Under the pieces are notes generated by a model, which was given only the letters and a program-made list of their open reading frames with translations, did no database searches and was not told the DNA's origin. A stretch of 64,000 nucleotides of DNA, taken from positions 288,001 to 352,000 of the forward strand of contig CM000151.3 in the NCBI GenBank assembly GCA_000004695.1. The letters run 5' to 3'. The position numbers and the translations under genes were made by a program. This DNA comes from Dictyostelium discoideum. Its lineage: Eukaryota. Below are positions 3,921 through 60,752 of the stretch, piece after piece (the stretch's first letter is position 1; each line of letters opens with the position of its first letter).

Positions 3921-4420
3921 GAATGAAATGGAATAAAATAAATTAAAAAAAAGAAATACAGAAATTAAAGAAACTTATTTCGAAATTGTTTAAACAATCA
4001 TACAGTTTAAAATTAAATAAATTGTTTTAAACCACCACTTTTTTTGAACACATGAAAATAAATAAGAAATAAAAATAAAAAGATAAAAAAAGATTTGTTT
4101 TTATTTTTTTTTATTTTATAATTATTCTTGTCGTCAGTATTGTTACTATTAATTAATCCCATGAGTTTTTTATTATTATTATTTTTAATTCTTTTATATT
4201 TGAGATGATTATTATTAATTAAATGACTTTGAGTTTTTTTTTTTATTTTTCTATGCCCAAAATTACCATATTAATTTCAGCCTAAAATAGGTGGTCTGTG
4301 CATGCCAAAATTAATATGGCTGCTGAAATTAATATGGTAATTCTAGCAGACATAAGTCCCATGCCAAAATTATCATATTAATTTCAGCAGCCATATTAAT
4401 TTTGGCATGGGACACGTGAT
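3225..4420. mobile_element. MITE-like non-autonomous element (P element family) with complex palindromic termini
   Basis: The same 58-bp palindrome GTCCCATGCCAAAATTATCATATTAATTTCAGCAGCCATATTAATTTTGGCATGGGAC sits at both ends (3225-3282 and 4366-4420). Subterminal modules (CTCAAATATAAA..AATGACTTTGA..CTATGCC) are in inverted orientation at 3340-3420 versus 4190-4265. The interior is AT-rich and non-coding. Related ends occur at 11760-11885, 19690-20155, 45890-46030, 60020-60500 and 61930-62215. Confidence 0.6.
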
Positions 4421-6764: not shown

Positions 6765-8618
6765 ATGTCAACAAATAAAAAAATAAAAACAGATAATAAT
6801 AATAAAATATTTCAAGATATTATTGATTTTGAAATTTTAAAATCTATAATCGATTATTTATTAACCAGCAAAAAAAATAAAAATAATAATAATATTAATA
6901 ATAATCAATATATAATTAAAAAATTTTATTTATATAGAGATGAAATATTAAATTATATATTAGTTTCAAAAAAGTGGTATAATTTTATATCATTTACAAT
7001 ATCAAATAATATTATTAATAATAAACTATTTGAACATTGGTTAAAAACTAATTTTAGTAATAATTCATTTATTGAAAATTATAATAATCAAAATCAATAT
7101 GATAAAAATAATTTAATTTATAATAACATAGAAGATAAACAATATAAAATTAGTTTTAATAAAGAATTTTCAATTATAAAAATCAAAGAATCAATAATCA
7201 ATGATTATTTTAAATTCAATTTATTTTTAGATCATTTTACGATTGACGATGATTTTAAAGAAATTAAAAATAAATTTGAAAAAAATCAATTACTTTATCA
7301 TAGAATTGTAGTTAGTGTTGATACTGATAATTATGGGTTTCCTAGTGATATTTTATTTACAATACATGAATATGTATCAAATGAAAATTCAGAAATCATA
7401 TCAAATTTATTTAAAATATTAGAATTAAATTTTGATTTTTGGTTGGATTACGGATATTGTCCACGTTCTGAAGAGGAGGATGATGAAGGTAATAAAAAAT
7501 GTAGAGAAATATATTTAAATAATTTATCAATTGCTGGTTATAATAGAGAAGTAGGTGAAGATGAAGAAACATTAAAGATATTCAAAATTTTCAAAAGTAA
7601 AAATATAATTTATGATGGATCCAATATTGATGAAAGTGATACTCCAACACATATCGATTATTCAACATTATTCGATCCAGATAATTCAGGTCAACAAGTT
7701 GAATCAATTAAAGTAAAAAATGAATATGGTAATGAAGCACGTCATTTAATCAAACTTAATCAATTTAAAAATTTACATTCAATTACAATACCAATTAATT
7801 CATTTCAAATATTATCAAACTTATCTGAAGAAATGGGATTTTGTAAGTTATATCGTACGATATATTCAGGTGATTCAGATAATATGAAATCAGAATTAAA
7901 TCAAATGATTAATTCATTCATTACAAATAAATCTTTAAAGTATTTAAATATATCATCTGTAAATTCAATATACACTCTTCCAATTAAAAATTATGATGGA
8001 GGTTATCATGAAATTTTTTTTAATAAAATAAATAAAACTATAGAATCATATTCAAATTCATTTAAACCATTATTTTCAGAATTAAATACATCGATTGAAA
8101 GAATTGAATTTGATTGTATGGGTTTATTAAATAATAAATCAATTAAATATTTATATTTATATGATAGTGATTTCATTGTTTATTCATCAAAACAAAAAGG
8201 TAATGTTAGTGGTATTCGATTACATAAAGAACATATTTCAATTAATCAATATTTATTTGATAATATATTTTCATCACCATTAACATCAATTAGACATTAT
8301 AAAATTAAATTCATAGAATTAAATCAAATCAAATTCTTATTTAATTTAATATTAAATAATATTTTTAAATTACAATTATATTCATTAATATTTGAATTCA
8401 ATGATAGCGAATTAATTGGTGAATTTGTTAAAGAATTTAAAAACTTAATAAATAATATTTCAACACAAGAACAACAAAAATCAAATAACATAAATTTAAA
8501 AGAAATTAAGATTAAAATTCAAGATGTTAATATTGATAAATATATTCAAGAATTAAATAATATTAACAATCCATATTTTACAACAATAATAAAGAAAAAA
8601 GCTAATAATGATGATTAA
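6765..8618 (+). CDS. Paralog-array family member 2 (617 aa, intact)
   Basis: Same architecture and motifs as 473..2452. The conserved leader ...CTCTTTATAATTTAAACAAATAATAATG is present upstream. Confidence 0.75.
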   Translation: MSTNKKIKTDNNNKIFQDIIDFEILKSIIDYLLTSKKNKNNNNINNNQYIIKKFYLYRDEILNYILVSKKWYNFISFTISNNIINNKLFEHWLKTNFSNNSFIENYNNQNQYDKNNLIYNNIEDKQYKISFNKEFSIIKIKESIINDYFKFNLFLDHFTIDDDFKEIKNKFEKNQLLYHRIVVSVDTDNYGFPSDILFTIHEYVSNENSEIISNLFKILELNFDFWLDYGYCPRSEEEDDEGNKKCREIYLNNLSIAGYNREVGEDEETLKIFKIFKSKNIIYDGSNIDESDTPTHIDYSTLFDPDNSGQQVESIKVKNEYGNEARHLIKLNQFKNLHSITIPINSFQILSNLSEEMGFCKLYRTIYSGDSDNMKSELNQMINSFITNKSLKYLNISSVNSIYTLPIKNYDGGYHEIFFNKINKTIESYSNSFKPLFSELNTSIERIEFDCMGLLNNKSIKYLYLYDSDFIVYSSKQKGNVSGIRLHKEHISINQYLFDNIFSSPLTSIRHYKIKFIELNQIKFLFNLILNNIFKLQLYSLIFEFNDSELIGEFVKEFKNLINNISTQEQQKSNNINLKEIKIKIQDVNIDKYIQELNNINNPYFTTIIKKKANNDD

Positions 8619-9223
8619 AAAAAATTATCTATATCTAAATTATTCATTTTTCATCCAACTATTTATTTTTTTTTTATTTTTTTTTTTTCAAGTTTTATTT
8701 GGATAAAATTAAATAAAATATTTTTTTTATTTATTTTTTTTTTTTTAGTTTCAAACTGTCACACCTGAATAAAAAAAATAAATGAAAAAACCCTCCCTCT
8801 TTATAATTTTTACAAATAATAATAATATCAACAAATTAAACAGACAATTATAATTTACAAAAAAAAAAAAAAAAAAAAAAAAAAATGGAAAAAAGAAAAC
8901 ATTTTTTTTTTTTAATTATTTCTAATTATTTTTAGAATTTAAACACTTTTATACACCTTATTATATTTTAAAATTTAAATTATTTAAAATGAGTGAATTA
9001 GGGGCAAAAAACGAAAAAAAAAAAAGAATTTCTTGCATAAAAAATATCTTTCTCAAATTTTTTTTTTTTTTTTTTATTTTATTTCATTTTTATTTTTATT
9101 TTATTTTTTATTTTATTTCATTTTATTTTTTTTTCCCAAAAAAAACCTTGTTTGAACCAAACAAATACTGTAACACACAAAAAAAAAAAATTGTAAACAT
9201 CTTTAATGGGTGCGACCATAAAT

Positions 9224-9272
<49 letters not shown>

Positions 9273-9662
9273 TTTGGGACAGTATTTGTTCGTTTCACAA
9301 AAAAAACAATTGAAAAAATCTTTCATGGCACTAAAAAAAGATTTTTAAAAAAAAAAAAAATGGATAAAATTTTAAAAAAACGATATCCATTTTGAATAAT
9401 TTAAAAAAAAAATAGGATGTATAAAGATAATCAAAAAAGAAACTTTTTATCCAAAAATGGATAAAGGTAAAATACTAAAAATTAAAATATATATATTAAA
9501 AAAAAAAATTAAATATATTTTTTTTATATATTTATTTTTTTTTTTTTTTTTTTTTTTTCTAAAAATTTAACAAAATAAACATTTTTTCAAAAAAAAAAAA
9601 AAAAAAAAAAAAAAAATTACCTCATTATTCTCGCGCACTCTTTATAATTTAAAAAAATAATA

Positions 9663-11516
9663 ATGTCAACAAATAAAAAAATAAAAACAGATAATAATAA
9701 AAAAATATTTCAAGATATTATTGATTTTGAAATTTTAAGATCAATAATTAATTATTTATTAATCAGCAAAAAAAATAAAAATAATAATAATAATACTAGT
9801 AATCAATATAAAATTAATAAATTTTATTTAAATAGAGATGAAATATTAAATTATATATTAGTTTCAAAAAAGTGGTATAATTTTATATCATTAACAATAT
9901 CAAATAGTATTATTAATAATAAATTATTTGAACATTGGTTAAAAATTAATTATAATAATAAATCATTTATTGAAAATTTTAATAATCAAAATCAATATGA
10001 TAAAAATAATTTAATTTCTAAAAACAAAAAATATAAACAAAATAAAATTAGTTTTAATAAAGAGTTTTCAATTATAAAAATCAAAGAATCAATAATCAAT
10101 GATTATTTTAAATTCAATTTTTTTTTAGATTATATTACAATTGATGATTTTAAAGAAATTAAAAATAAATTTGAAAATAATCAATTACTTTATAATAGAA
10201 TTGTAGTTAATGGTAGTTATGAAGGGGAAGTTTTATTTGGAATACATGAATATTTATCAAATGAAAATTCAGGAGTTATTTTAAATTTATTTAAAATATT
10301 AGAATTAAATCATGCTTTTAATTTATATTATAAACCAAAATCTGAAGAGAAGGATGAGGAGGATGGTCATGATGATAAAGGTAATAAGAAATGTACTGAA
10401 ATATATTTAAATAGTTTATCAGTTTTTGGTTTTGATGAAGGTGAGGGTGAAGTTCAAACATTAAAGATATTCAAAGTTTTCAAAGGTAAAAATTTAGTTT
10501 ATGATGGATCTGAAGAAGATCCTGATTTTCAAACACATATCAATTACTCTGCATTATTTGATCCAGATAGCTCAGGTCAACAAGTTGAATCGATTCAAGT
10601 ACAAAATAAATATGATAATGAAGAGTCAGTCGAAGCACGTCATTTAATCAAAGTTAATCAATTTAAAAATTTACATTCAATTATAATACCAATTAATTCA
10701 TTTCAAATATTATCAAACTTATCTAAAGAAATGGGATTTATTAGTTCCCATGGTTATGAAGAATATTCAGGAAATTCAGAAAATATGAAATCAGAATTAA
10801 ATCAAATGATCAATTCAATCGTTACAAGTAAATCTTTAAAGAATTTAAAAATAACATCTGTAAATTCAATATATTATCCAATTGATTACAAAGCTTTTTA
10901 TGATGGTGATCTTGAAACCCTTACTAATAAAGTAAATGAAACTATAGAATCATTTTCAAATTCATTTAAACCATTATTTTCAGAATTAAATACATCAATT
11001 GAAAGAATTGAATTTGATTGTATGGGTTTATTAAATATCAATACATTTTCAAATTTATTAAATAATAAATCAATTAAATATTTATATTTATATAATAGTG
11101 ATTTCATTGTTTTTTCACCTAAAAAAAGAGGTGGTCCATTTCATAGAGAACCTATTTCAATTAATCAATATTTATTTGATAATATATTTTCATCACCATT
11201 AACATCAATTAGACATTATAAAATTAAATTCATAAAATCAAATGAATTAAAATTCATATTTAATTTAATATTAAATAATATTTTTAAATTACAATTATAT
11301 TCATTAATATTTGAATTCAATGAAAACGAATTAATTGGTGAATTTTTTAAAGAATATAAAAATTTAAAAAATAATATTTCAACACAACAACAAAAATCAA
11401 ATAACATAAATTTAAAAGAAATTAAAATTAAAATTAAAGATGATGAATATATTCAAGAATTAAATAATATTAATATTCCATATTTCACCACAACATTAAT
11501 AAAGAAAATAACCTAA
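9663..11516 (+). CDS. Paralog-array family member 3 (617 aa, intact)
   Basis: Paralog with the same N-terminal F-box-like motif, ALFDPDSSGQQVESIQV core and IPYFTTTLIKKIT end. Conserved leader upstream. Confidence 0.75.
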   Translation: MSTNKKIKTDNNKKIFQDIIDFEILRSIINYLLISKKNKNNNNNTSNQYKINKFYLNRDEILNYILVSKKWYNFISLTISNSIINNKLFEHWLKINYNNKSFIENFNNQNQYDKNNLISKNKKYKQNKISFNKEFSIIKIKESIINDYFKFNFFLDYITIDDFKEIKNKFENNQLLYNRIVVNGSYEGEVLFGIHEYLSNENSGVILNLFKILELNHAFNLYYKPKSEEKDEEDGHDDKGNKKCTEIYLNSLSVFGFDEGEGEVQTLKIFKVFKGKNLVYDGSEEDPDFQTHINYSALFDPDSSGQQVESIQVQNKYDNEESVEARHLIKVNQFKNLHSIIIPINSFQILSNLSKEMGFISSHGYEEYSGNSENMKSELNQMINSIVTSKSLKNLKITSVNSIYYPIDYKAFYDGDLETLTNKVNETIESFSNSFKPLFSELNTSIERIEFDCMGLLNINTFSNLLNNKSIKYLYLYNSDFIVFSPKKRGGPFHREPISINQYLFDNIFSSPLTSIRHYKIKFIKSNELKFIFNLILNNIFKLQLYSLIFEFNENELIGEFFKEYKNLKNNISTQQQKSNNINLKEIKIKIKDDEYIQELNNINIPYFTTTLIKKIT

Positions 11517-11759
11517 AATTTAGGTGGTGTAATAGTTGAACGTGATGACATCGTGTAAAGGGGATCGTTGGCATAATAACCTACTAAATTTGGTGAACAC
11601 AGGATCATAGGTTTACTATAAACAAACATATAAAGAAATAAAAGATAAAAATAAAATGATATAAGATTTTTTTTTTTTTTTTTTTTTTTATTATTATTAT
11701 TATTGTAATAAAAAAAAAATAATAATTTTAGTACTAAAATTTTTTTAGTAATTTTAGTA

Positions 11760-11885
11760 ACAGTTAATTAATCCCATGAGTTTCTATTTGTTTATATTTG
11801 AGATGATTATTAATTAAATGACTTTGACTTTTTTCTTTTTTCTATGCCAAAATTACCATATTAATTTCAGCATATACATAGCTGC
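11760..11885 (+). repeat. Solo end fragment of the palindromic-end MITE family
   Basis: TTAATTAATCCCATGAGTTT..ATTTGAGATGATTATTAATTAAATGACTTTGA..CTATGCCAAAATTACCATATTAATTTCAGC matches the 4110-4290 terminus. No partner end nearby. Confidence 0.5.
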
Positions 11886-11936
11886 CAATGTGGTGTTCAA
11901 TTCATTCTAGATAATTTAAATAGTAACTATTATTAA

Positions 11937-12050
11937 CTATTTCTTTATTACTGTTGTGAAATATGGAATATTAATATTATTTATTTCTTGAATATATTCA
12001 TTATCATTAGTTTCAATTTTAATTTCTTTTAAAGTAATGTTATTTGATTT

Positions 12051-12126
<76 letters not shown>

Positions 12127-13916
12127 ATTGAAATATTATTTATTAAATTTTTAAATTCTTTAACAAAATCACAAACTAATTCGTTTTTATTGAATTCAAA
12201 TATTAATGAATATAATTGTAATTTAAAAATATTATTTAATATTAAATTAAATATGAATTTTAATTGATTTAATTCATTCAATTTAATTTTATAATGTCTA
12301 ATTGATGTTAATGGTGATGAAAATATATTATCAAATAAATATTGATTAATTGAAATAGGTTCTTGATGTAATTCATTACCGCTATAACTTGGTTTTGAAG
12401 AGTAAACAATGAAATCACTACCATATAAATATAAATATTTAATTGATTTATTATTTAATAAATTTGAAAATGTATTGATATTTAATAAACCACAACAATC
12501 AAATTCAATTCTTTCAATTGATGTATTTAATTCTGAAAATAATGGTTTAAATGAATTTGAAAATGATTCTATAGTTTCGTTTATTTTATTAGCAAAAATT
12601 TCATGATCAGCTCCCTTACAATCACGATAATATAAACCTTCATAATCAATTGGAGAATATTTTGAACTTACTGATGAGATATTTAAATTCTTTAAAGATT
12701 TACTTGTAATAAATGAATTGATCATTTGATTTAATTCTGTATTAATATTTTCAGAGTTACCCGATTCTGATTTACTATTATAAAATCTAATAAATCCCAT
12801 ATCCTCAGATAAGTTTGATAATATTTGAAAAGAGCTAATTGGTATTGTAATTGAATGTAAATTTTCAAATTGATTAACTTTGGCTAAATGGAGAGGTTCA
12901 ACAAATTCATCATTATCAGGTTCAATTTGTACTTTAATTGATTCAACTTGTTGACCTGAATTATCTGGATCAAATAATGCTGAATAATTGACATGTGTAG
13001 GCATATCACTACAAGTATCAGATCCATCATAAAATATATTTCTACCTTTGAAAATTTTGAATATCTTTACTGTTTCTTCATCATTACCTACTTCTCCATC
13101 AAAACCTGCAATTGATAAATTATTTAAATATAATTCAGTACATTTCTTACCACCTTTATCAGTATCATGATCACCTTCCTCCTCTTCAGAGTTTGGGCTA
13201 TAACCATTATCCAAACAAAAATCAATATTTAATTCTAATATTTTAAATAATTTTGATATGACTTCTGAATTTTCATTTGATACATATTCATGTATTCTAA
13301 ATAAAGTTGTTTTATTATTATTACTATCATAATCAGCATCAACATTAACTACAATTCTATTATAAAGTAATTGATTATTTTCAAATTTATTTTTAATTTC
13401 TTTAAAATCATCAATTGTAATCTTATATAAAAATAAATTGATTTTAAAATAATCATTGATTATTGATTCTTTGATTTTTATAATTGAAAACTCTTTATTA
13501 AAACTAATTTTATTTTGTTGATAATTATAATCTTCATCTTTAAAAATTAAATTATTTTTATCATATTGATTTTGATTATTATAATTTTCAATAAATGATT
13601 TATTTTTATTATTATAATTAATTTTTAACCAATGTTCAAATAATTTATTATCAATAATATTATTTGATATTGTTAATGATATAAAATTATACCACTTTTT
13701 TGAAACTAATATATAATTTAATATTTCATTTCTATAAAAATAAAATTTATTAATTTTATATATATTAATAGTATTATTATTTAAATTATTATTTTTATTT
13801 TTATTTTTTTTGCTAGTTAATAAATAGTTGATTATAGATTTTAAAATTTCAAAATCAATAATATCTTGAAATATTTTATTGTTATTATTTGTTTTTATTT
13901 TTTTACTTGTTGACAT
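11937..13916 (-). CDS. Paralog-array family member 4 (659 aa, intact), the only inverted copy; carries a (CAA)n-encoded polyQ tract of about 26 Q
   Basis: Intact ORF on the minus strand with the family motifs. A (TTG)n/(CAA)n microsatellite at 12050-12125 encodes QQQ...Q just before the C-terminal SNNITLKEIKI motif. Confidence 0.75.
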
Positions 13917-14227
13917 TATTATTTGTTAACATGATATGTTAAGAGTGAGTTTGAATTTTTAAAGTGTTTGAAAAAAAAAAAAGTAAAAAAAAAAAGAAAA
14001 AAAAAAAAAAAGTTGTGATTAGAGATGCTGGAAATGAAAAAAAAATAAAAAAAAAAAAAAAAAAAAATTTGGCAAAAAAAAAAAAAAATTGTTTTTTTTT
14101 ATTTTTTTTATTTTTTTTAAAAACAAGTTTAAACGATCCATCTTCTAATGGTAAAATGATGGGATCATTTAATTTTAATCTCTGAGTGCCGAAGAATTCC
14201 AATGGAGTATGAAGATGTTCAGTTGGT

Positions 14228-14708
14228 TCTATAGTTTTGTTTATAAATAAAAAAAGAGAGAATTTAATTAATTAATTAAAAATAATAATAATAATAATAA
14301 TAGTTTACCTTGGTAAGCTTTACTCAAATCATGTAGTTTTTGTTTCTTTAGTGGTGACTTTCTTTTGAGGCTAGAGTTGGATTTTGAATCTTCATCTGAC
14401 TCCGATTCTGATGGATCTGAATATTCTTCCTCATTGTCATTTGGGTTTGGTAATTGTGGTTGTGGTGGTGTTATTGTTGGTATTGTCTGTGCAGTAGATG
14501 CAGAAGGGACTTGAACGGTGATTGTGTGACTTTTTAAATCTGATGAAATTTTCTTTATCCTTTGGGTTAACGCAGTTTTGGTTCTTTTTTGTTGGAAATT
14601 AATATTTAAATTATTGAGAATATCGTCGGCAACCAAAGAAGGTTTTTTTAATAATTCGCTTTTAATATAATTATCTTCAGCTGGAGACCAATTTGAAGTT
14701 TTGGGCAT
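14228..14708 (-). CDS. Myb/SANT-like DNA-binding protein. Exon 1 is 14309..14708, then a GT..AG intron 14229..14308; exon 2 starts at 14228 and its 3' end is uncertain. Likely the accessory gene of a Harbinger/PIF-like transposon
   Basis: N-terminal WSPAEDNYIKSELLKK...KRTKTALTQRIKKI fits the W-x-EED Myb/SANT pattern, followed by an acidic Ser-rich tail. The splice donor CAAG|GTAAAC and acceptor CTATAG| join in frame to ...EPTEHLHTPLEFFGTQRLKLNDPIILPLEDGSFKL. It lies next to, and diverges from, a DDE_Tnp_4 fragment. Confidence 0.5.
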
Positions 14709-14731
14709 TCTTTAAATATAAAAATAAAATT

Positions 14732-14771
<40 letters not shown>

Positions 14772-14945
14772 AAAAAAAAAAGAAGTTTTGTCAAAATACT
14801 CTCCATTAGTTTTTTCAAAAAAAAAAAAATGCACATTTTTTTTAAAAAAAATTACAGTAACAATAAATTACTATAAGCTGCTCGTAATATTTTACGAGGG
14901 CAGCACCAAAAAAAAAGTCCAGTAACTTTTACACTAAAAAAAAAA

Positions 14946-15115
14946 GATTGATGGTATTAAAATTTATTCAGTCATAGACACCACATTATTTAATATTCAA
15001 AAACCAACTGATTTTCAAGATGTTTATTATTCACCAAAACACAAAAAACATGGCATCAAATTGGAAGTTGTATGCAACGTTTCAGATGGAAAAATCATTT
15101 GGGTATCAAATGGTG

Positions 15116-15183
<68 letters not shown>

Positions 15184-15475: not shown

Positions 15476-15583
15476 ATTCTTGTCATCAGTATTGTTACTA
15501 TAATTAATCCATGAGTTTTTTAATTATTGAATTTATATTTGAGAGATTATTATTTAAATGACTAAGAATTTTTTATTTTTTTT

Positions 15584-16540
15584 TTACTTACTATCATTAT
15601 AATCAGTAGCAGTATAGTTTATTGGGTCATCTAGCATTGATTTTAATCTATTATTATCTAATTTTCCTTCAAAATTTTCAATTTCTTGAATTGTTGTCGG
15701 AACTGATTCTAAAGATACTTTTAATAATATTATTGAAGTTGAAACTTGTTCTTTTTCTTTTTCTTTTTCTGATTCAGTTAATATCTTTAATTTTATTATT
15801 AATTTACAAGTGGTAATTAATCTTTTTAATGTTGATCTTTCATTAACCTGATATATAGTTTTGAGGTTTTTAATTATTAGATCAATTGTTAATTTACTAT
15901 TATTACAACTACTACTATTATTATTATTATTATTATCATTACCAATGTTATTTAAATAACATAATAATCCTTTAAAAATATTATCATTTTTTGGAATTTC
16001 ATCTAACTCGATTGATTTCTCACCAAAATCAGTGTTATTTAATGATGTTTCTAATGATGTTGATGATGGTGAGTTTGATTTTTTTAATTCTAAATTCTTT
16101 GATTGTATTATTGCAGTTGATACATAAATTGGTGAAGAGTAATAATACCTTTGAATTTTGAAAAAGTTTCTATTAAATTTGAAATCATTTTTAATTATTT
16201 CAAATAATTTCTTTAAATAAATTAAAATTAAATCTTTACGCCAACTAGATTGATCAGACTCTTTACGCCAACAAGTTTCACCAAATTCTAAATATCTACA
16301 ATTTCTATAAGCTTTTTCTTTTAAAATACTAATTTGATTTGAATCTATTAGTTTAGTTATTGACGATACTGAATCGTAACTAAATGAATATTGGTTATAC
16401 ATAAATGAGAATATCTTTTTATAAATTGCTTTATTTCTAAACAATTTCCAAAATAATATTTCAATTGGTTCTATATTATCTGTAATTGTTAATTTTATTG
16501 AATGAATTAGTATTTTCTTTTCGTTCATGTTCTTCTTCAT
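15584..16540 (-). CDS. ORF1-family protein (318 aa), intact short copy; transposon-associated, function unknown
   Basis: Intact ORF MKKNMNEKKILIHSIKLTITDNIEPIEILFWKLFRNKAIYKKIFSFM.... An identical N-terminal 150 aa occurs in the longer degenerate copy at 55222..57782. Family fragments at 58300-58400 and 63450-64000. Bounded downstream by a truncated palindromic-MITE terminus (15470-15580). Confidence 0.6.
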   Translation of the reverse strand: MKKNMNEKKILIHSIKLTITDNIEPIEILFWKLFRNKAIYKKIFSFMYNQYSFSYDSVSSITKLIDSNQISILKEKAYRNCRYLEFGETCWRKESDQSSWRKDLILIYLKKLFEIIKNDFKFNRNFFKIQRYYYSSPIYVSTAIIQSKNLELKKSNSPSSTSLETSLNNTDFGEKSIELDEIPKNDNIFKGLLCYLNNIGNDNNNNNNSSSCNNSKLTIDLIIKNLKTIYQVNERSTLKRLITTCKLIIKLKILTESEKEKEKEQVSTSIILLKVSLESVPTTIQEIENFEGKLDNNRLKSMLDDPINYTATDYNDSK

Positions 16541-17424
16541 ATTCTCTTTTTCTTTTTTTTTACAATTTTAATCCTTTCAATTATTTCTTGTTTATTTAAG
16601 TGATTTATTTCTATACAATATGATTTTGCAATTTCTTTAATTGATTTTAAATTCTTTTTCTCTAATTCACAATTATTATCATTATCTTTATCATCTTATT
16701 AATTAAAGATGACAAAAATAATTTAAATATATAAATTATTTTTCATTGTTGTGGTGGTGGGGGAAATTAAAAAATAAAAAAAAAAAAATATAAAAAAATA
16801 TAAAAAAAAATATAAAAAAAAAAATAAAAAAAAAAAAAAACAAATAAAAAACATTTTTATGGTGAAACGGATTTTATTTAGTTTTTTTTTTTTTTTTTTT
16901 TTTTTTCTATTTTATTTTTTTTTTTTACTATTTTATTAAATATTTATATTTAAAAAAAAAAAAAAAAAAAACATATAAAAAACATTTTGTAACACTTAAA
17001 AAAAAAAAAAAAAAAAAAAAAATTCAGCGACTCTATTATGGTTTTAAAAAAAAAATGGTAAGTCATAAATATTCACTTAAAATAAACAAAAGTTTTACAA
17101 TCTTTATTATGATATACTAATATTAATTTTAGAAAAAAAAAAAAAAAAAAAAAAATTTTAGTTTAGATTAAAAAATTTTAAAAATAAAGGAATTAAATGT
17201 TATTGAAAATTAAATAAAATTAAATTTATTTATTTATTTATTTATTTATTTATTTGTTTATTTATTTTTTATTTATTTAATGGAATTCCGTTTATATATT
17301 TTTTTTTAATGAAATTTCATTAATTTTTTTTCAATGAAATTTCAAACAAAGAAATAAGCAAATATATATTATTTGTTTATTTCTTTGTTTGAAATTTCGT
17401 TGAACATTATTTTTAAACGAATTC

Positions 17425-17550
17425 AAATGACTACATAACCCCTGTAAGCGGTTAGTATCCCCTTGTAATCCTTACAACCAGTGTAGCCCACAAATCCGGC
17501 CATTCGTCTTACAGGCCTATTAGCCGCTTACAGGGGTTACGTAGTCATTT
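17425..17550. repeat. GC-rich (about 55% GC) 126-bp palindromic element: 27-bp inverted repeats around a 71-bp core with three CTTACAGG motifs
   Basis: AAATGACTACATAACCCCTGTAAGCGG ... CCGCTTACAGGGGTTACGTAGTCATTTT. A second copy in inverse orientation lies at 54262-54400 with 5 substitutions, none compensatory. It stands out sharply in AT-rich surroundings. Confidence 0.55.
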
Positions 17551-18086
17551 TGCTCGTTGGGGGTGTAATTAATATTTATTTATATTTTTATTATGGGCTA
17601 ATTCTTTTTTTATTATTTAATGATAATTTTATATTAAAATATGATATATTATTAATTAATATTAATTTGTTAAAAATTTTATTATATTATAATCTCTTTA
17701 TAAAAAGTGAGAAATTATGTGTCATAAAATATCTAATAAAATAATGAATTTTCTAAAATTTTTTTTTCCAGCGAATAATAAAAAAAAAAAAACTGTTTTT
17801 GTTAACAATGGGGTGAAGATGATTTATTGTAATTTTTTAATAATTTTAGTTCTGTTTTTTTTTTAATGGAGATATGAGAGAGATTATTATGATATTTTGA
17901 ATGATTGGATCATAGTAATAAAACAATATTTTTAATTTTTTTCTTTTTTTTTTTTCTTTTCATTCTTTTTTTTTTTCTTTTCATTCTTTTTTTTTAGTAC
18001 TTAATCTTTTTTTTTTTCATCTTTCAAAATAAAAAAAAAATATTTATATAAATTTTAACTTTAAATTAAAATAAATAAATTTTAGA

Positions 18087-18509
18087 ATGGCTGAAGAATA
18101 TCATCAATTGAAAATTACAATATTTACTGATAAAGGGAGATCAACAATAAGTGGTTTTGGTAAGTTAATTAGAATTATTAATTTATAAATATTTAATTTT
18201 AGTTTATATATTAAAAAATGTAACATTTAATTTCATTCTTCTGGCTTTTTTAAAAATATAGAGTATCCTCAACCTATATTACCTTATCCTGCACCATATA
18301 CTTTTAGATTTTTTCATTACGATATTGAAGGCCCAAATTTAACCAACAAAGAATTTAAAGTAAAAACAGGTAAAATTGAATACAAAGGAGAAGAATTTGA
18401 TATTCCTCCATCATCTAAGGGCTCATGGAGAAGAGAAGATAACCTATTCGATTTAATCTCTGTTACAATATATCCAAGTAGACAACCAAAAAAAGTTTTT
18501 CATTATTAG
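18087..18509 (+). CDS. Small two-exon gene (about 106 aa), hypothetical protein. Exon 1 is 18087..18159, intron 18160..18261, exon 2 18262..18509
   Basis: ATG..GGTTTTG|GTAAGTT donor and TATAG|AG acceptor. The spliced frame gives MAEEYHQLKITIFTDKGRSTISGFEYPQPILPYPAPYTFRFFHYDIEGPNLTNKEFKVKTGKIEYKGEEFDIPPSSKGSWRREDNLFDLISVTIYPSRQPKKVFHY*. A diverged paralog with the same exon/intron structure lies at 53330..53751 (-). Confidence 0.6.
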
Positions 18510-18766
18510 ATCTTAAAAACAGATCTGAAACAATGAAAACAAAAATAAAAAATTTTAAAATTTTTTCATAATTGAATTGATATAAAAAAAAAATTATGAT
18601 TAAAAAAAAAATATGTGTGGAAAAAAAAAAAAATTAAAAATAAAAAATATATTTGTTTATGGTGTTATGTTTTTTGGTAAGGTTTAAAGTGATCAAAAAA
18701 TTATCATTCAAACTTGTATACCAGTGTTCGACCTTTTTCCACATTTGGAAAAAAAGGGTGTCTTTT

Positions 18767-19420
18767 TTAATTTCCCTTCCATTCCATGTTTTTGTTTGAT
18801 TGAGTTGTGATTCCACCATTATTGGAAGTTGTTGCAGCTTCATGTGTTGATCTAACTTCGGTGGTAGAGTGCTCGATTGCTTTTCCAACTAGGTCATCTG
18901 TTGATTTTCTTTTGGTTATTTCGATATCCCTTTGCAATTTATTTTTACTTGAGAGTTTGGTGGCCTCTATTCTAGAAGTAGGCTCAGTATTGTAATAAGC
19001 CTTTATAATAGCAGAATGATTATCTGCTTTATAATGATTACTGATGTGCTGTTGACACTGGTTTTGATTAATCATATGAGAGACACCATCTTCATCTTTG
19101 TTAAGCCTAACCTTCTCTATAATCTTCACTAAGTCTTTTGGGTACCAATTTTTTCTTTTTATCTTTATCAATATAAAACACTTCTTTAATAGTTGCCGTA
19201 CCATATTCTACATTCTCAACAACATACTGTTTATCCAAAATGTTTTTCCAATAGCTTATATTTTGTCCACTCAATTTGGTATTATGAAATTTATAATCTA
19301 TTTTAAATTTTACATCTTCGTCATATTTTTCCAAGAGTTTTTTTAATTTATTTTTATTATTTTTTCAATTTCTGTTGCAGAAAGTTGATTATTTAATTTA
19401 TTGTCTTTACTGAAGACCAT
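18767..19420 (-). pseudogene. ORF-T: repeat-associated coding region split across two overlapping frames (19107..19334 and 18767..19204); probable transposon ORF with a frameshift
   Basis: The MEKYDEDVKFKIDYKFHNTKLSGQ...LVPKRLSEDYREG frame ends where the frame-shifted MVRQLLKK...RLNKDEDGVSHM...EATTSNNGGITTQSNKN frame is already open. A third upstream segment (MVFSKDNKLNNQLSATEIEKIIKIN*) needs another +1 shift. A mirror copy at 60955..61697 (+) has the same frame breaks. Confidence 0.4.
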
Positions 19421-19620
19421 TTTTTGGAACGAAAACTTTAAAAAAATAAAAAAATAAAAAAAAAAATACTTTTTTTTTTTAATTTTTTTTTTTATATTTT
19501 TTTTTTTATATTTTTTTTTTTTAAATTTTTTTTTTTAATTTTTTTTTTTTATTTTATTTTTTTAAAGTTTCGAACAATTATATATAAAAAAAAAGTAAAA
19601 GATATCCCTTCGGTTAATTA

Positions 19621-19689
<69 letters not shown>

Positions 19690-19698
<9 letters not shown>

Positions 19699-20155
19699 TT
19701 CGAAATGTTTAAACAATCATACAGTTTAAAATTAAATAAATTGTTTTAAACCACCACTTTTTTTGAACACATGAAAATAAATAAGATATAAAAATAATAA
19801 GATAAAAAAAGATTTTTTTTTTTTTTTTTTTTTATTTTATAATTATTCTTGTCGTCAGTATTGTTACTATAATTAATCCCATGAGTTTTTTTTATTATTA
19901 TTTTTAATTCTTTTATATTTGAGATGATTATTATTAATTAAATGACTTTGAGTTTTTTTTTTTATTTTTCTATGCCCAAAATTACCATATTAATTTCAGC
20001 AGCCATATTAATTTCAGCCTAAAATAGTTGGTCTGTGCATGCCAAAATTAATATGGCTGCTGAAATTAATATGGTAATTCTAGCAGACATAAGTCCCATG
20101 CCAAAATTACCATATTAATTTCAGCAGCCATATTAATTTTGGCATGGGACACACA
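19690..20155 (+). repeat. Terminus of the palindromic-end MITE family, capping the 15.4-20.2 kb duplicated block
   Basis: Matches the 3955-4420 subterminal and terminal sequence, including the double palindrome ...CCATATTAATTTCAGCAGCCATATTAATTTCAGC...GTCCCATGCCAAAATTACCATATTAATTTCAGCAGCCATATTAATTTTGGCATGGGAC. Preceded by (AAT)n at 19621-19690. Confidence 0.55.
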
Positions 20156-21489: not shown

Positions 21490-23472
21490 ATGTCAACAAA
21501 AAAAAAAATTAAAACAGATAATAATAATAAAATATTTCAAGATTTTATTGATTTTGAAATTTTAAGATCTTTAATCAATTATTTATTAATCAACAAAACA
21601 AATAATAATAATAATAATAATAATAAATATAAAATTAGTAAATTTTATTTACATAGAAATGAAATATTGAATTATATATTAGTTTCAAAAAAGTGGTATA
21701 ATTTTATATCATTAACAATATCAAATAATATTATTAATAATAAATCATTTGAACATTGGTTAAAAATTAATAATAATAATAATAATAAATCATTTACTAA
21801 AAATTATAATAATCAAAATCGATATGATAAAAATAATTTAATTTTTAATAACAAATATAGTAAAAATAAAATTGGTTTTAATAAAGAATTTTCAATTATA
21901 AAAATCAAAGAATCAATAATCAAAGATTATTTTAAATTCAATTTATTTTTAAGTAATATTACAATTGATGATTTTAAAGAAATTAAAAATAAATTTGAAA
22001 ATAATCAATTAGTTTATAATAGAATTGTTGTTGATATTAAAACTGGCTATTATGGTGAAGGGAATCAAGATGAAATTTTATTTAAAATACATGAATATGT
22101 ATCAAATGAAAATTCAGAAATCATATCAAATTTATTTAAAATATTAGAATTAAATCATGATTTTATGATAATCGATGACTTTCATCCAAAATCTAAAGAA
22201 GAGGATGAAGAGGATGAGGAGGATGATGAAAATGATAAAGGTAGTAAGAAATGTACTGAAATATATTTAAATAATTTATTGGTTTCCGGTTATGATCTAA
22301 CTATGGATGAGGATGAAGATAGAGAATCATTAAAGATATTCAAAATATTTAAAAGTAAAAATATATTTTATGATGGGTCTGGTATTGCTAGTGATATTCC
22401 AACACATGTCAATTATTCAGCATTGTTTGATCCTGATAATTCAGGTCAACAAGTTGAATCGATTAAAGTAAAAAATGAACTTGAAGATCCTGATTTTGTA
22501 GAACCACTCCATTTAATCAAAGTTAATCAATTTAAAAATTTACATTCAATTACAATACCAATTAATTCATTTCAAATATTATCAAACTTATCCGAAGAAA
22601 TGGGATATTTTAGTATCGATTGTTTTAAATCTGGTTTTGGTCTTTCAGATAATATGAAATCAGAATTAAATCAAATGATCAATTCATTCATTACAAGTAA
22701 ATCTTTAAAAAATTTAAAAATAACATCTATTAGTACAAAAGAAGATCCAATTGATTATGATGCTTATTATGATGAAGGTGATCTTCAAACTTTTATGAAT
22801 CAAATAAATGAACCTAAAGAATCATTTTCAAATTGTTTCAAACCATTATTTTCAGAATTAAATACATCAATTGAAAGAATTGAATTTGATTGTTGCGGTT
22901 TATTAAATATCAATACATTTTCAAATTTATTAAATAATAAATCAATTAAATATTTATATTTATATGATAGTGATTTCTTTTTTTCTTCATTAAAAACAAG
23001 TGATGGTGGTAGTGATGATTGTGGTATTGATGATGATGGTGGTAGTGATGATTGTGGTATTGATGATGATGGTGGTAGTGATGATTGTGATGCATATCAA
23101 AAAATTATTTCCATTAATCAATATCTATTTGAAAATATATTTTCATCACCATTAACATCAATTAGACATTACAGAATTAAATTCAAAGAATTAGATGAAT
23201 TAAAATTCATATTTAATTTAATATTAAATAATATTTTTAAATTACAATTATATTCATTAATATTTGAATTCAATGAAAACGAATTAGTTTATGAATTTGT
23301 TAAAGAATTTAAAAATTTAATAAATAATATTTCAATACAAGAACAACAACAACAACAACAAAAATCAAACAACATAAATTTAAAAGAAATTAAAATTATA
23401 ATAAATGATGACTGTTTAGAAGAATTAAATAATCCATATTTCAAAACAACAATAAAGAATAGCCCATATTAA
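21490..23472 (+). CDS. Paralog-array family member 5 (660 aa, intact); contains an internal 3x (DDCGIDDDGGSD) tandem expansion
   Basis: Intact ORF with the family motifs. A 39-nt unit is repeated three times at 22990-23100 inside the variable region that precedes the conserved ISINQYLF motif. Confidence 0.75.
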   Translation: MSTKKKIKTDNNNKIFQDFIDFEILRSLINYLLINKTNNNNNNNNKYKISKFYLHRNEILNYILVSKKWYNFISLTISNNIINNKSFEHWLKINNNNNNKSFTKNYNNQNRYDKNNLIFNNKYSKNKIGFNKEFSIIKIKESIIKDYFKFNLFLSNITIDDFKEIKNKFENNQLVYNRIVVDIKTGYYGEGNQDEILFKIHEYVSNENSEIISNLFKILELNHDFMIIDDFHPKSKEEDEEDEEDDENDKGSKKCTEIYLNNLLVSGYDLTMDEDEDRESLKIFKIFKSKNIFYDGSGIASDIPTHVNYSALFDPDNSGQQVESIKVKNELEDPDFVEPLHLIKVNQFKNLHSITIPINSFQILSNLSEEMGYFSIDCFKSGFGLSDNMKSELNQMINSFITSKSLKNLKITSISTKEDPIDYDAYYDEGDLQTFMNQINEPKESFSNCFKPLFSELNTSIERIEFDCCGLLNINTFSNLLNNKSIKYLYLYDSDFFFSSLKTSDGGSDDCGIDDDGGSDDCGIDDDGGSDDCDAYQKIISINQYLFENIFSSPLTSIRHYRIKFKELDELKFIFNLILNNIFKLQLYSLIFEFNENELVYEFVKEFKNLINNISIQEQQQQQQKSNNINLKEIKIIINDDCLEELNNPYFKTTIKNSPY

Positions 23473-24385: not shown

Positions 24386-24842
24386 ATTTTCCTCTGAATC
24401 TAACTATTCTTCATTGCCATATTCAATGGCTAAATTTCTTAAGAGTTTTATCGAATCTATTAATTCTTCGATCATTCTTTTTTTTTGAAATTTTTTTTTA
24501 TTTTGTTTTTTCAATTTTTTTTTTTTATTTTGTTTTTTCAATTTTTTTTAAGTTTTATTTTTTTTTATTTTTTTTTATTTTTTTTAACAAATGTAATTTT
24601 TTTTTATTTTTTTCAATTTTTTTTTTTTTTTAATTTTTAATTTTTTTTTTTTTTTTTAATTTTTTGTGTTGATTTGTGTTTTTTTTGTTTTTTTGATTTG
24701 GCCACTTGTTTTTATTTTCTAATTTCCCCATACCCCCTTCTATTAATTGCAACCAAATCAAGTTCTAATTTTTGTGTCCTTGTTAACTTTGTTTTTGCAA
24801 CTTTTTTTGAAGGTATCACATTAACGATTTTTCCTATTGATG

Positions 24843-25042
24843 GTGATTTGGAAGGTGATTTAAATGGTGATTTAAAAGGTGAATTGGAAGGTGATTTAAA
24901 TGGTGAATTGGAAGGTGAAATGGATGGTGATTTGGAAGGTGATTTAAATGGTGATTTGGAAGGTGATTTTAATGGTGATTTAAATGGTGAATTGGAAGGT
25001 GAAATGGATGGTGATTTGAGAGGTGATTTGGATGGTTTAGAA
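24843..25042. repeat. 15-bp tandem repeat (GGTGATTTRRAWGGT, about 13 units); possible subterminal transposase-binding repeats
   Basis: Direct tandem units in the DNA. Translates in the + frame to GDLEGDLNGDLKGELEG..., but more likely non-coding. Its reverse complement carries the AAATCACC motif that is also tandemly repeated inside the R elements. Confidence 0.5.
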
Positions 25043-26121
25043 TGTGATTTTAAAGGAGGTTTATTAACAATTGGTAGGACGGGAGGACGGCCTCTGAACA
25101 GTTGTTACTATACCACTATACCATTACCAGATTGTGGTATAGTATACGATGGTATTATTTGCACTTGAGGTAACTATTTCTTTTAATCTTTTAAATTCAT
25201 ATCCTTTCTCAAACAATTCATTAAATTTGGCGCTGTTAGATTATTATTTAAAAATGGGAGTATTTCTTCTTGTTCCATTTCATTATTGAGTTTGTGTTGA
25301 AATGGATTATCGTTAATGATAGGTGGAATATTTGATGGATTGTTAATAGCATCTTCCAAAACCCTAAATGGATCATTTTGTGTTACCAATTGATGCAAGT
25401 TGAAATTGGATAAATCCTTACCAAGATTTTTAATAAACTGAACCAAAAATTCAATAACTTTCCCATCATTATTTAAATAAAGACCAGAAGTAAAAGAATC
25501 AATATCTTTTTGTATGTTTGGCGATGTTCTAAAAATATCAACTGTTGATTGTTTATAAAGAACCAACTTGTTACCTCCTACAAAACCAGAGTATAAACCT
25601 TTTTTTTGAAGGCTATTGATTCCATCTTCCAAAAATTCAAGTTTATAAAGTTGTTTAGTGTCTTCCTGTATTACCTTATGAATTTTACACAAAATCAATA
25701 TTTTCTATTAGAATTAAATATAAAATTTGTTAATTATTACTGTTTCATATATTATTAATCTTTATGTTTTAATTACTTACATTATTTTTTTTAATTTCTA
25801 GAAAGAGTACAGTATCACCAACTTTCAATCCCTTTGGTGGTTTTGAATTCCATTGATTTTGGTAACTTGTGAGATTTTCAAGAATAATAGCTGTTCTTTC
25901 TTCTTTTGAAACATCTGAAACACCAATTGATTGAGAGTCTTGTTCTGATTGAACATTAATAAACAAAGGAACAATACCAACAGCTTGAGATGGTGTCATT
26001 TTAATTGTTCTTGTTTTTGTATTATTGTAATCATACAAAGCTTGTTTTAATAGTTCAGAAAGAGACCTAGAAGTACCATCAAGAAAACTAAAATTTATTT
26101 ATAAATGATTAATTAATAAAC

Positions 26122-26873
26122 ATCACAGCAAAGAAAAAACCACCTTTAAATTCGCTTTAAATTAAATTTAAATTTGCTTTAAAGTCCTGAATTAAAGCAA
26201 TTTTAAAGGTAATTTTTAAGGTTACTTTAAAATCACCTTAAAAATTACCTTTAAAATTACCTTTAAAATTACCTTTTTAATGGCTTTAAAAGCGAGGTCC
26301 TGAGTTCGAATCCGTTATTTAACGGATAAATTTTTTAAAATTTTTTTTTTAATTTTTCAAAAATTACCCAAAAGGGATTCGATCCCCCGACCCTCTATCA
26401 AAGGGTAGTCTCATCAACCATTACACCATTTGATTGCTTTGATGAAAAATTTAAAAATGATAGAATATTTTATCCCCATTTTTTTGTGCTAAAATTAGAT
26501 CTTTTTTATTAAAAATCTTAAATTTATGTTTAAAGGAAATTTAAATTCACTTTAAATCTACTTTTAATCTACTTTAAATCCTATTTAAAATTAATTTAAA
26601 ATAAATTTTAAAGGTATTTTTAAATATCTTAAAAATTATCTTAAAAATTACCTTAAAAATCACCTTTAAAATCACCTTTAAAATCACCTTTAAAATTGCT
26701 TAAAAATTTATTTTAAAGCAAATTTTAAAGGCATTTTTAAATATCTTAAAAATTACCTTAAAAATTACCTTAAAAATGAATTTTTTAAACGCGGCTTTAA
26801 ATTCAATTTAAATCCAATTTAAATCAACTTTTCTTTAAATTTGCTTTAAAGGTGCATTTTTCTTTGCTGTGAT
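26122..26873. mobile_element. R element copy 1 (about 750 bp, MITE-like) inserted in the transposase gene
   Basis: 12-bp terminal inverted repeat ATCACAGCAAAG / CTTTGCTGTGAT. Internal tandem AAATCACCTTT and AAATTACCTTT repeats. Internal tRNA-like segment with A-box and B-box. Flanked on both sides by AT. A second copy at 27678..28458 is more than 98% identical in the same orientation. An R-like fragment also lies inside a MITE at 35100-35200. Confidence 0.6.
26374..26437 (-). ncRNA. tRNA-like module inside R element (A-box TGGTGTAATGG, anticodon-arm-like ACCCT/TTGATAG/AGGGT, B-box GGATCGAATCC); lacks an acceptor stem, so a tRNA-derived / SINE-like promoter module
   Basis: The minus strand reads GCAATCAAATGGTGTAATGGTTGATGAGACTACCCTTTGATAGAGGGTCGGGGGATCGAATCCC. 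The T-arm and anticodon arm fold, but the 3' acceptor strand does not pair with the 5' end. An identical module lies in R2 at 27959..28022. Confidence 0.4.
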
Positions 26874-27677
26874 ATCGATAATTTATATTGTTCACAATAT
26901 CATACTCTTGTTGTTTTAATTTTGAGATCCTCTCCTTGATAGTTCGATTCAATCTTTCTACCATACCTTGAGTTGTTGGTGTACGAGGAGCTCCATGTGC
27001 TGACTTGGAGCCTGGAAAAAGTTTTAGGAATTCTTTTTGGACTTTGTTTTTAAATTCACGTCCATTATCGCAGTGCCATACTTTCACAGGTTTGCCAAAG
27101 TACGTGAGAGCCAAAAAATTGTATATGGGAACTGTTCTCTTTGTTGTCAAACATCTAAAAAATAAATGATAATTAAAATAAAAAAAGAAAACTAATAAAT
27201 TAATAAATAAAAAATAAATACCTTCCAGTAGCAAATTTTGTAAAAGAATCTATGCATAGAATAATGTAAACAACATCGGTGTCGTACGGTTGTACAGAGT
27301 CATATTGGATAAGATCATCTAGTTTAGTTAGTATCTTTTCATTATCATCATCGTATGTAACTTTTTCTTTATGTTCACCTTTAATTGATGTTAAATCATA
27401 AACCAATCTTGAGTATTCCTCGGTATCTACAATTGGAGCAAAATCCTTTGTTATACCTATTAATTTATTTAAATTATTAAAAGAGTTTTAATATAAAAGT
27501 TACAAAACATCATATAAAAATGATTGATACCAAACCTTTTATTCTATTTCGTTGGCAAATGTCACACGTATCTACTGCATCAGATACAAAAGAATACAAT
27601 CCCATATTATAATATTTAGTCTTGTAGTTCCCATAGGTTGCATCTCTTCCTATATGACCTTTATGCATTTCTTCCCA

Positions 27678-28458
27678 GAGTGATACCATCACAGCGAAGA
27701 AAAAACCACCTTTAAATTCGCTTTAAATTAAATTTAAATTTGCTTTAAAGTCCTGAATTAAAGCAATTTTAAAGGTAATTTTAAAGGTAATTTTTAAGGT
27801 TACTTTAAAATCACCTTATTTAATATTTATTTATAGGCTTATCATTTAAGCTGAAGGGTTATTTTAATGGCTTTAAAAGCGAGGTCCTGAGTTCGAAGCC
27901 GTTATTTAACGGATAAATTTTTTAAAATTTTTTTTTAATTTTTCAAAAATTACCAAAAGGGATTCGATCCCCCGACCCTCTATCAAAGGGTAGTCTCATC
28001 AACCATTACACCATTTGATTGCTTTGATGAAAAATTTAAAAATGATAGAATATTTTATCCCCATTTTTTTGTTCTAAAATTAGATCTTTTTTATTAAAAA
28101 CCTTAAATTTATGTTTAAAGGAAATTTAAATTCACTTTAAATCTACTTTAAATCTACTTTAAATCCTATTTAAAATTAATTTAAAATAAATTTTAAAGGT
28201 ATTTTTAAATATCTTAAAAATTATCTTAAAAATTACCTTAAAAATCACCTTTAAAATCACCTTTAAAATCACCTTTAAAATTGCTTAAAAATTTATTTTA
28301 AAGCAAATTTTAAAGGCATTTTTAAATATCTTAAAAATTACCTTAAAAATTACCTTAAAAATGAATTTTTTAAACGCGGCTTTAAATTCAATTTAAATCC
28401 AATTTAAATCAACTTTTCTTTAAATTTGCTTTAAAGGTGCATTTTTCTTTGCTGTGAT
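27678..28458. mobile_element. R element copy 2 (MITE-like) inserted in an exon of the transposase gene
   Basis: Same TIRs and internal structure as 26122..26873. Removing it plus one flanking AT dinucleotide joins ...EVCLEVINDYR to MVSLWEEMHKGHIGRD... in frame. Confidence 0.6.
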
Positions 28459-28743
28459 TCTATAATCATTAATTACTTCTAAACACACTTCTTTTGATAT
28501 ATTTCTATCTCCGCCACAATTCATGACTTTTTTTTCAATTCTAAATAATTTTTCTTTTCTGTTTCTGTTTTTTATTGGTCAGAATTTAAAAAATGATTGT
28601 GTTATTGTAAGGAAAAATATTTACTCATCATGTAAAAATTTATAATTTTTATGTTTAGTATTTTCAAAATTATTATCTTCAATAAATTTTAAATAATTTA
28701 TAATTTCATTTATTTTATCTTGTTTCATTTTGGGAAAATGAAA

Positions 28744-38564: not shown

Positions 38565-38675
38565 ATGTCAACAAATAAAAAAATTAAAACAGATAATAAT
38601 AATAATAATAAAATATTTCAAGAAATTATTGATTTTGGAATTTTAAAATCTTTAATCGATTATTTATTAATCAAC

Positions 38676-38746
<71 letters not shown>

Positions 38747-54261: not shown

Positions 54262-54400
54262 CCCCCAACGAGCAAAATGACTACGTAACCCCTGTAAGCG
54301 GCTAATAGGCCTGTAAGACGAATAGCCGGATTTGTGGGCTACACTGGTTGTAAGGATTACAAGGGCTACTAACCGCTTATAGGGGTTATGTAGTTATTTG
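54262..54400. repeat. Second copy (inverse orientation) of the GC-rich palindromic element
   Basis: Reverse complement of 17425-17560 with 5 substitutions, three of them in the stem arms (CTTATAGG, TTATGTAGTT). Confidence 0.55.
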
Positions 54401-54850: not shown

Positions 54851-54883
<33 letters not shown>

Positions 54884-58998: not shown

Positions 58999-59021
58999 CA
59001 ATAAATTTTTAAAATTGAAAG

Positions 59022-60596: not shown

Positions 60597-60752
<156 letters not shown>

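Follow-up and report, generated by a model that had tools for sequence, protein, structure and literature searches.

[quoted passage not shown] The Class I RNAs of this species, 37 of which have been curated (Kjellin et al. 2021, PMC7919456, supplementary file 19), are 42-65 nt long and carry a 5-6-bp terminal stem with a single-stranded 11-nt CCUUACAGCAA beside its 5' half; the published rule places the end of their upstream element (DUSE, [AT]CCCA[CT/AT]AA) 56-64 nt before the site where transcription starts, or before a TGTG box. Some Dictyostelium miRNAs are documented to arise from palindromes of the thug-S type, and one miRNA primary transcript, pri-mir-1177, reads into its downstream gene.

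Here we describe a GC-rich inverted repeat at positions 17425-17550 of a window of D. discoideum AX4 chromosome 2 (the window being the whole stretch of 64,000 nucleotides that was analyzed, to which all positions refer). It had been predicted from the sequence to be either a small structured RNA or a MITE, and neither is confirmed. By dissecting the repeat and its second copy, comparing the two copies with each other and with their flanks, and searching RNA families, miRNA catalogues and mobile or foreign DNA for relatives, we arrive at the tentative hypothesis that the repeat is an orphan, decaying foldback element that was duplicated passively along with its surroundings.

Results

Anatomy of the inverted repeat

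The repeat sits in an AT-rich spacer of ~1.5 kb between two divergently oriented coding sequences. The left neighbor is DDB_G0271414, matched with 100% identity by a minus-strand ORF at 15584-16540, and an open frame upstream of this ORF has weak Rho_N/SAP-like similarity; the right neighbor is a plus-strand exon (18231-18506) with a Dicty_CAD domain (E=1.8e-28). The parts of the repeat are the following:

17425-17451: left arm AAATGACTACATAACCCCTGTAAGCGG, 27 nt, including the outer CCTGTAAG box at 17441-17448
17452-17523: spacer, 72 nt, the outermost 6 nt at each end prolonging the palindrome to 33 bp
17462-17470: degenerate box CCTTGTAAT, in the spacer
17470-17480: CCTTACAACCA, in the spacer
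17487-17493: CCCACAA, in the spacer
17508-17515: inner CTTACAGG box, in the spacer
17524-17550: right arm CCGCTTACAGGGGTTACGTAGTCATTT, 27 nt, including the outer CTTACAGG box at 17527-17534
17552-17566: GC-rich 15-mer GCTCGTTGGGGGTGT, adjoining the right arm only

As originally predicted, the arms form a 27-bp stem with one mismatch (26/27 complementary; A17435 vs C17540), and the palindrome can be extended from 27 to 33 bp at the cost of two more mismatches, both transitions. The predicted GC-rich segment in AT-rich surroundings is likewise found as a sharp island, with a GC content of 46% over the 126-bp unit and 50% over its central 102 nt in place of the 55% first given; the 425-bp flanks have 12.5% and 14.5% GC, and the window has ~20% GC throughout. 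Besides the repeat, no local palindromes of the window other than thug-S sequences reach 30% GC. Together with T17551 the right arm gives a TTTT end on the plus strand. The 15-mer beyond it is the same in both copies of the repeat and, lying on the right side only, makes the repeat unit asymmetric; read on the minus strand it is a 5' leader, ACACCCCCAACGAGC, and we take this block to resemble G-box/CA-rich promoter elements.

The whole unit of copy 1 has fold energies of -58.9 (plus strand) and -64.4 kcal/mol (minus strand), compared with averages of -24 (plus) and -32 (minus) for shuffles of the same 126 nt (z ~ -10; 0/200 shuffles as stable). The GC-rich inverted repeat is a real structure, far from chance expectation. 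The 72-nt spacer folded alone has z-scores of -0.6 and -1.0 in copy 1 (not significant) and of -2.7 and -2.2 in copy 2 (modest); because the spacer has no significant self-complementarity of its own, the unit consists of inverted arms plus a spacer, and the description "perfect palindrome" does not hold.

The octamer CCTGTAAG/CTTACAGG is indeed repeated, with a count that differs from the four occurrences first reported: it is exact three times in copy 1 (17441 plus, 17508 minus, 17527 minus), where the fourth box is the degenerate CCTTGTAAT, and exact twice in copy 2. In the whole window six occurrences stand against 0.2 expected, and five of the six are within the two copies. Each arm has two boxes, 19-21 bp apart, in a mirror layout. 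We know of no factor that binds CCTGTAAG.

A second copy within an inverted segmental duplication

Self-BLAST shows positions 15581-18797 to be colinear with 56269-53107, that is, a 3.2-kb inverted segmental duplication of ~92-93% identity, which takes in the flanking genes too and whose differences are mostly indels in A/T runs. Its parts are as follows:

15581-18797: duplication arm 1, carrying copy 1
53107-56269: duplication arm 2, carrying copy 2
54275-54399: copy 2 of the repeat, inverse orientation, 125 nt
54259-54274: GC-rich flank ACACCCCCAACGAGCA of copy 2, counterpart of 17552-17566

A second copy had been predicted at 54262-54400, and it exists, in inverse orientation and with the bounds listed here. 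Since both copies lie inside one duplication, they are not independent of each other. They differ at five positions: two C-to-T changes in the same arm and, in the core, one G-to-A change, one substitution and one 1-nt deletion. In the independent GenBank assembly GCA_054883475.1 both copies are base-for-base identical to those described here, which rules out an assembly artefact and means that no variation was gained from that assembly. Further full or partial copies were found neither in the 64-kb window nor in ~27 kb of additional D. discoideum DNA (~90 kb in total), and a 20-kb Dicty_CAD paralogue cluster of a third assembly holds no copy of the inverted repeat.

The duplication as a whole is split into two blocks (15581-20151 vs 53107-56269 plus 60022-61578), which adjoin on the left, while 3.8 kb separates them on the right. 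The level of identity along it is mosaic, with a 650-bp tract of ~100% at 16094-16743 and 89-95% at 18232-18481, and this pattern suggests tracts of gene conversion. The Dicty_CAD exons at 18231-18506 (plus) and 53333-53608 (minus) differ at 17% of GC sites, compared with 3.4% in the neighboring ORF.

Stem substitutions, strand signal and divergence

On the minus strand of copy 1, which is equivalent to the plus strand of copy 2, all three arm mismatches found over both copies are G.U pairs, and on this strand the stem differences of copy 2 either change G-C to G.U or are inherited G.U pairs. Stem substitutions had been cited as an argument against an RNA, which loses its force because all three are compatible with G.U pairing on one strand. 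The RNAalifold consensus for this strand has 51 pairs, all kept in both copies (-64.1 kcal/mol), whereas three arm positions are open in the consensus for the opposite strand (43 pairs, -45.6 kcal/mol). One spacer change turns a G.U into an A-U pair on the minus strand of copy 1, and the single-strand folds of copies 1 and 2 reach -64.4 and -68.3 kcal/mol on the minus-equivalent strand vs -58.9 and -52.6 kcal/mol on the other. This folding across copies, suggested with the original prediction as a check, shows no compensatory double change between the two.

Five mismatches occur in the 33-bp extended arms; both arms are hit and all five are transitions, three of them pairing as G.U on the minus strand and the other two on the plus strand. 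In copy 1 the inner helix, with four G.U pairs, is no better than shuffles. Given this 3 vs 2 split and an inner helix at the level of shuffles, the strand asymmetry is weak and not significant. Scattered, transition-only arm mismatches are what is expected when a palindrome that was once perfect decays neutrally with an AT bias.

At GC sites the copies of the duplication diverge by 4/68 in the repeat; the immediate flanks show 14/101 (p=0.13), and the noncoding DNA of the duplication taken together shows 36/191 (p=0.01). The lower value in the repeat is only a hint of constraint; in a duplication that is mosaic, with a 650-bp tract of ~100% identity, a conversion tract could explain it as well.

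Searches for RNA families and miRNAs

A covariance model of Class I RNAs was built from an alignment of the 26 canonical members among the 37 curated D. discoideum RNAs (6-bp terminal stem) and run over the whole window with filters off and E<=10. It gave no match overlapping 17425-17567 or 54259-54399; its best scores in the window, at other sites, are <=13.7 bits, compared with an Infernal score of >=15 in the published Class I classifier. The sequence likeness on which a Class I lead had been based is real, CTTACAG forming the core of the motif published as CCTTACAGCAA. The CCTTACAACCA of the spacer, for its part, agrees with the motif at 9/11 positions and directly follows a short stem half on its 3' side. 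Yet the CUUACAG of the arms is fully base-paired, while that of Class I RNAs is single-stranded, and neither the G/AAG start nor the CUG(U) end of Class I RNAs is present in the repeat. Elsewhere in the window, a lone CCTTACAGG at 41965-41974 agrees with 8/11 motif positions in an AT-rich setting and has no match to the Class I model.

A DUSE-like element had been suggested at about 60 nt upstream; none is present at 56-64 nt. The nearest such motifs are the following:

17591-17597, minus strand: DUSE-like heptamer CCCATAA, upstream of the hairpin, its end 40 nt from the hairpin base and hence outside the 56-64 nt of the rule
54228-54234: counterpart of CCCATAA at copy 2

Heptamers of this type number 10 in the window vs 11.9 expected, which is chance frequency, and upstream on the plus strand there is no CCCA motif. 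The CCCACAA of the spacer was considered as a DUSE, being 58 nt before G17552, but was rejected: AT-rich sequence with an internal T5 follows, which makes no plausible RNA.

In Rfam searches nothing was found at the repeat when the whole window was scanned at the gathering threshold, and at E<=10 the 601 nt and 181 nt of the repeat region gave only generic hairpin-miRNA noise (for the 181 nt, generic plant-miRNA hairpin models at 20-21 bits vs gathering scores of 100). RF03716 (mir-7131) does not match the repeat even at E<=10, and ARAGORN relaxed to 70% of its threshold finds no tRNA there. Membership among tRNAs, tRNA-derived RNAs, vault RNAs, Y RNAs, snRNAs or snoRNAs was rejected, there being no cloverleaf or covariance-model match. 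Several likenesses noted by eye were dropped for want of model support, namely a tRNA A/B box, a vault RNA box A, an Sm site (AUUUGUGG), a SECIS AUGA, a C/D box, a U1 5'-end-like CUUAC and splice-like GTAAG/CTTACAG.

Judged by its extended hairpin (a z-score of ~ -10 and the 51-pair consensus, with the minus-equivalent folds of both copies), the repeat is predicted to have the form of a miRNA precursor. The strings of its arms and core are absent from the searched text and supplements of three miRNA catalogues (Meier 2016, Liao 2018, Edelbroek 2024), no mention of its sequence was found in the literature searched, and the palindromes of Drewell 2023 are AT-rich and do not include it. A 10-nt identity with a pri-mir-1177 primer was set aside as chance; mir-1177 adjoins DDB_G0287713.

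Searches for mobile and foreign DNA

The unit has terminal inverted repeats like those of a MITE (27 nt, or 33 nt with the two further transitions). No direct repeat of 2-10 bp that could be a target-site duplication is present at any boundary tried; the junctions with the flanks read ...CGAATTC/AAATGAC and GTCATTT/TGCTCG..., where AAA/TTT and AT/AT are part of the palindrome. With no target-site duplication and, in ~90 kb, no copy outside the 3.2-kb duplication, the earlier view of a tiny mobile palindrome is left without positive support; two copies confined to a larger repeat had been named beforehand as a refuting outcome, and within ~90 kb this is what is observed. The GC content of 46-50% is, moreover, unusual for Dictyostelium transposons.

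Exact and degenerate patterns of arm and core had 0 matches in JGI metagenomes, GTDB genomes and IMG/VR. An origin from bacterial, ERIC-like or prey DNA found no support, as plasmids, phages and E. coli genomes gave no match in blastn. A protein search with the reading frame that overlaps the hairpin, aimed at other Dictyostelium assemblies, found no match; searches with the neighboring proteins led to one near-identical assembly and to one unrelated CAD cluster without the repeat. This separate cluster comprises four CAD genes (6800-15169 of the 20-kb piece of the third assembly), and the hairpin is absent from it.

Other features of the window

Three full thug-S hairpins (4311-4399, 20048-20136 and 60037-60125) match RF03716 at 94-99 bits on both strands, and two shorter palindromes (3225-3282 and 62142-62199) have the GTCCCATGCCAAAATTA arm in common with them. 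One of the full thug-S copies is 2.5 kb from the repeat, in a block (18787-20151) that is duplicated at 61578-60022. Only 20 bp to the left of the repeat is a 73-bp AT-rich palindrome (17331-17403; 54420-54501 at copy 2, with a loop insertion), which has weak matches to generic miRNA-hairpin models of Rfam (<=36 bits, below gathering).

In GCA_054883475.1 the orthologue of DDB_G0271414 is modeled as a protein of 333 aa whose first exon starts from an ATG in the hairpin spacer (window 17503); the model spans 7505-9417 of the piece of that assembly (window ~15590-17503, minus strand) and implies an intron of ~0.9 kb. The model is probably an artefact of ab initio prediction, although its strand is the one on which the hairpin folds best.

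Eight paralogous ORFs of 572-698 aa, with ~80-90% DNA identity and without a Pfam domain, form a large species-restricted tandem gene family:

473-2452: paralogous ORF
6765-8618: paralogous ORF
9663-11516: paralogous ORF
11937-13916, minus strand: paralogous ORF
21490-23472: paralogous ORF
29314-31032: paralogous ORF
35360-37456: paralogous ORF
46485-48395: paralogous ORF

The remnant of an rve-integrase element (~24700-28500) has 12-bp periodic repeats and two direct repeats of ~770 bp (26121-26882 and 27687-28466), each of which holds a tRNA B-box-like GGTCCTGAGTTCGAATCC. The only tRNA of the window, found by both ARAGORN and Rfam, is tRNA-Val(AAC) at 59021-59095 on the minus strand. Tandem arrays in a 9-bp register are present at 60558-60726 and 38663-38784 (a BLAST ladder in 9-nt steps).

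Discussion

We tentatively favor, at somewhat less than even chances, the reading in which the repeat is the orphan remnant of a foldback or miniature-TIR DNA element. Such an element would have arrived once in the AT-rich spacer between the SAP/Rho_N-like DDB_G0271414 and the Dicty_CAD-domain gene, either by transposition, with the paired boxes as putative transposase-binding sites, or by insertion of foreign or inverted-duplicated DNA. GC-to-AT transitions would afterwards have piled up in both arms, and the element, presumably inactive at present, was later copied passively with the inverse duplication of the 3.2-kb block. Several observations favor this reading: the architecture of terminal inverted repeats around an unstructured spacer; two mirror-arranged octamer boxes per arm; arm mismatches that are all transitions, as neutral decay predicts; two copies that are colinear within one inverted duplication; GC-site divergence that does not differ significantly from that of the immediate flanks; the lack of a match to any known RNA family; and absence from the three miRNA catalogues, in which a transcribed 27-bp perfect duplex should stand out. 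The thug-S hairpins of the window indicate that hairpin-type mobile DNA is present in the neighborhood. Against a foldback relic stand the missing target-site duplication and the one-sided GC-rich 15-mer, which a symmetric TIR element does not explain; the GC-site divergence, reduced relative to the whole noncoding duplication, hints at constraint; mobility itself is unsupported, as no further copy is found in ~90 kb; and GC-rich intergenic islands in the D. discoideum genome are often RNA genes.

The main rival, which we judge unlikely, is that the minus strand of copy 1 (the plus strand of copy 2) encodes a hairpin RNA. Polymerase II would initiate within the AT-rich DNA on the right, perhaps past the minus-strand T13 run at 17792-17780, which could mark a leftward start site, and would transcribe the leader ACACCCCCAACGAGC followed by a rod of 51 pairs with a fully paired base of 27 bp, which DrnB/RbdB might cut to ~21-nt RNAs or which might persist as a stable RNA of ~125-145 nt. 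All predicted pairs being kept on this strand in both copies argues for such a gene, as do the G.U nature of the three arm mismatches, the core change from G.U to A-U and the greater stability of the minus-equivalent fold in each copy; but the strand asymmetry on which these points turn is not significant, and none of them is a compensatory double change. The position of the GC-rich extension, on the 5' side of the minus strand only, would suit a leader. The upstream CCCATAA is on the right strand and kept in both copies, but is a heptamer at chance frequency that ends at 40 nt; downstream on the minus strand there is no terminator beyond a TTT. A GC-site divergence ~2.5-3x below that of the flanks (p=0.13 for the immediate flanks) is in keeping with a functional RNA, the thug-S hairpins of the window are palindromes able to become miRNA sources, and the predicted gene model of GCA_054883475.1 puts a minus-strand first exon in the hairpin. 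Counting against the RNA gene, again, are its absence from the three catalogues and from Rfam.

A more novel reading, which we consider quite unlikely, is that of a lineage-specific hairpin RNA gene on the minus strand (a young, miRNA-like Dicer substrate born from a foldback) or else of the first member of a GC-rich, two-box TIR family not yet described in dictyostelids. Were it such an RNA, its absence from the catalogues would stem from the mapping of reads to two places or from other conditions of expression.

We give little credence to a cis-regulatory module in the divergent promoter of DDB_G0271414 and the Dicty_CAD gene, in which the four CCTGTAAG-type boxes (2+2, in mirror arrangement) and a G-box-like GTTGGGGGTGT would bind dimeric or tetrameric factors and the palindrome would be a by-product of the symmetry of the sites. 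The ~1.5-kb spacer between divergent coding sequences, boxes ~two helical turns apart and GC-site divergence below that of the flanks speak for such a module, and Dictyostelium promoter elements usually take the form of short GC-rich blocks, with G-rich boxes binding GBF. But 27 contiguous complementary bp go far beyond the need of four 8-bp sites, no factor is known for the box, and no hairpin or box cluster is found upstream of the four paralogous Dicty_CAD genes of the third assembly or near the paralogue fragments of the left gene elsewhere in the window.

That the repeat is related to the Class I RNAs, or derived from them, has next to no chance, and membership of the family is effectively refuted, the shared CTTACAG and the 9/11 motif positions being outweighed by the failure of the 26-RNA covariance model in either copy, a length of 126 nt vs 42-65 nt, the wrong termini, the spacing of the DUSE and a motif that is paired in the arms.

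If the hairpin is expressed, it offers a snapshot of the early birth of a small-RNA gene, already in the form of two diverging paralogues. If, as we tentatively prefer, the hairpin is what is left of a foldback element now dead, it adds a little to the inventory of repeats and serves as a warning for screens that take GC islands as a guide to non-coding RNAs. On either reading the Class I RNA family is not extended.

Comparison with known systems

Among described elements of the same genome, thug-S (the source of ddi-mir-7131, RF03716) is like the repeat in being a short, hairpin-forming inverted repeat in AT-rich intergenic DNA. There is no sequence similarity between them, and thug-S is multicopy, ~31% GC and palindromic almost throughout, whereas the repeat has 46% GC and a 72-nt non-palindromic spacer and is known from one duplicated locus only. 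Class I RNAs (the DdR-21 family) share with it CTTACAG and a GC content above the level of the genome, and differ in covariance model, length, termini, DUSE spacing and the unpaired state of the motif. The DrnB/RbdB-dependent miRNA precursors of D. discoideum (mir-1176, mir-1177) resemble it as long, near-perfect intergenic hairpins upstream of a protein-coding gene; the repeat, unlike these, is not in the catalogues searched and has no T-rich-then-G start-site motif directly upstream. From MITEs it departs in having no target-site duplication, dispersed copies or matching autonomous partner in the available sequence, and in its one-sided GC-rich flank. What it has in common with MITEs and foldback elements, and with the IR/DR ends of Tc1/Sleeping Beauty-like elements, is terminal inverted repeats of 27-33 bp; like MITEs it is small (126 bp) and non-coding, and the two direct 8-bp boxes of each arm are comparable to the two transposase-binding repeats of an IR/DR end.
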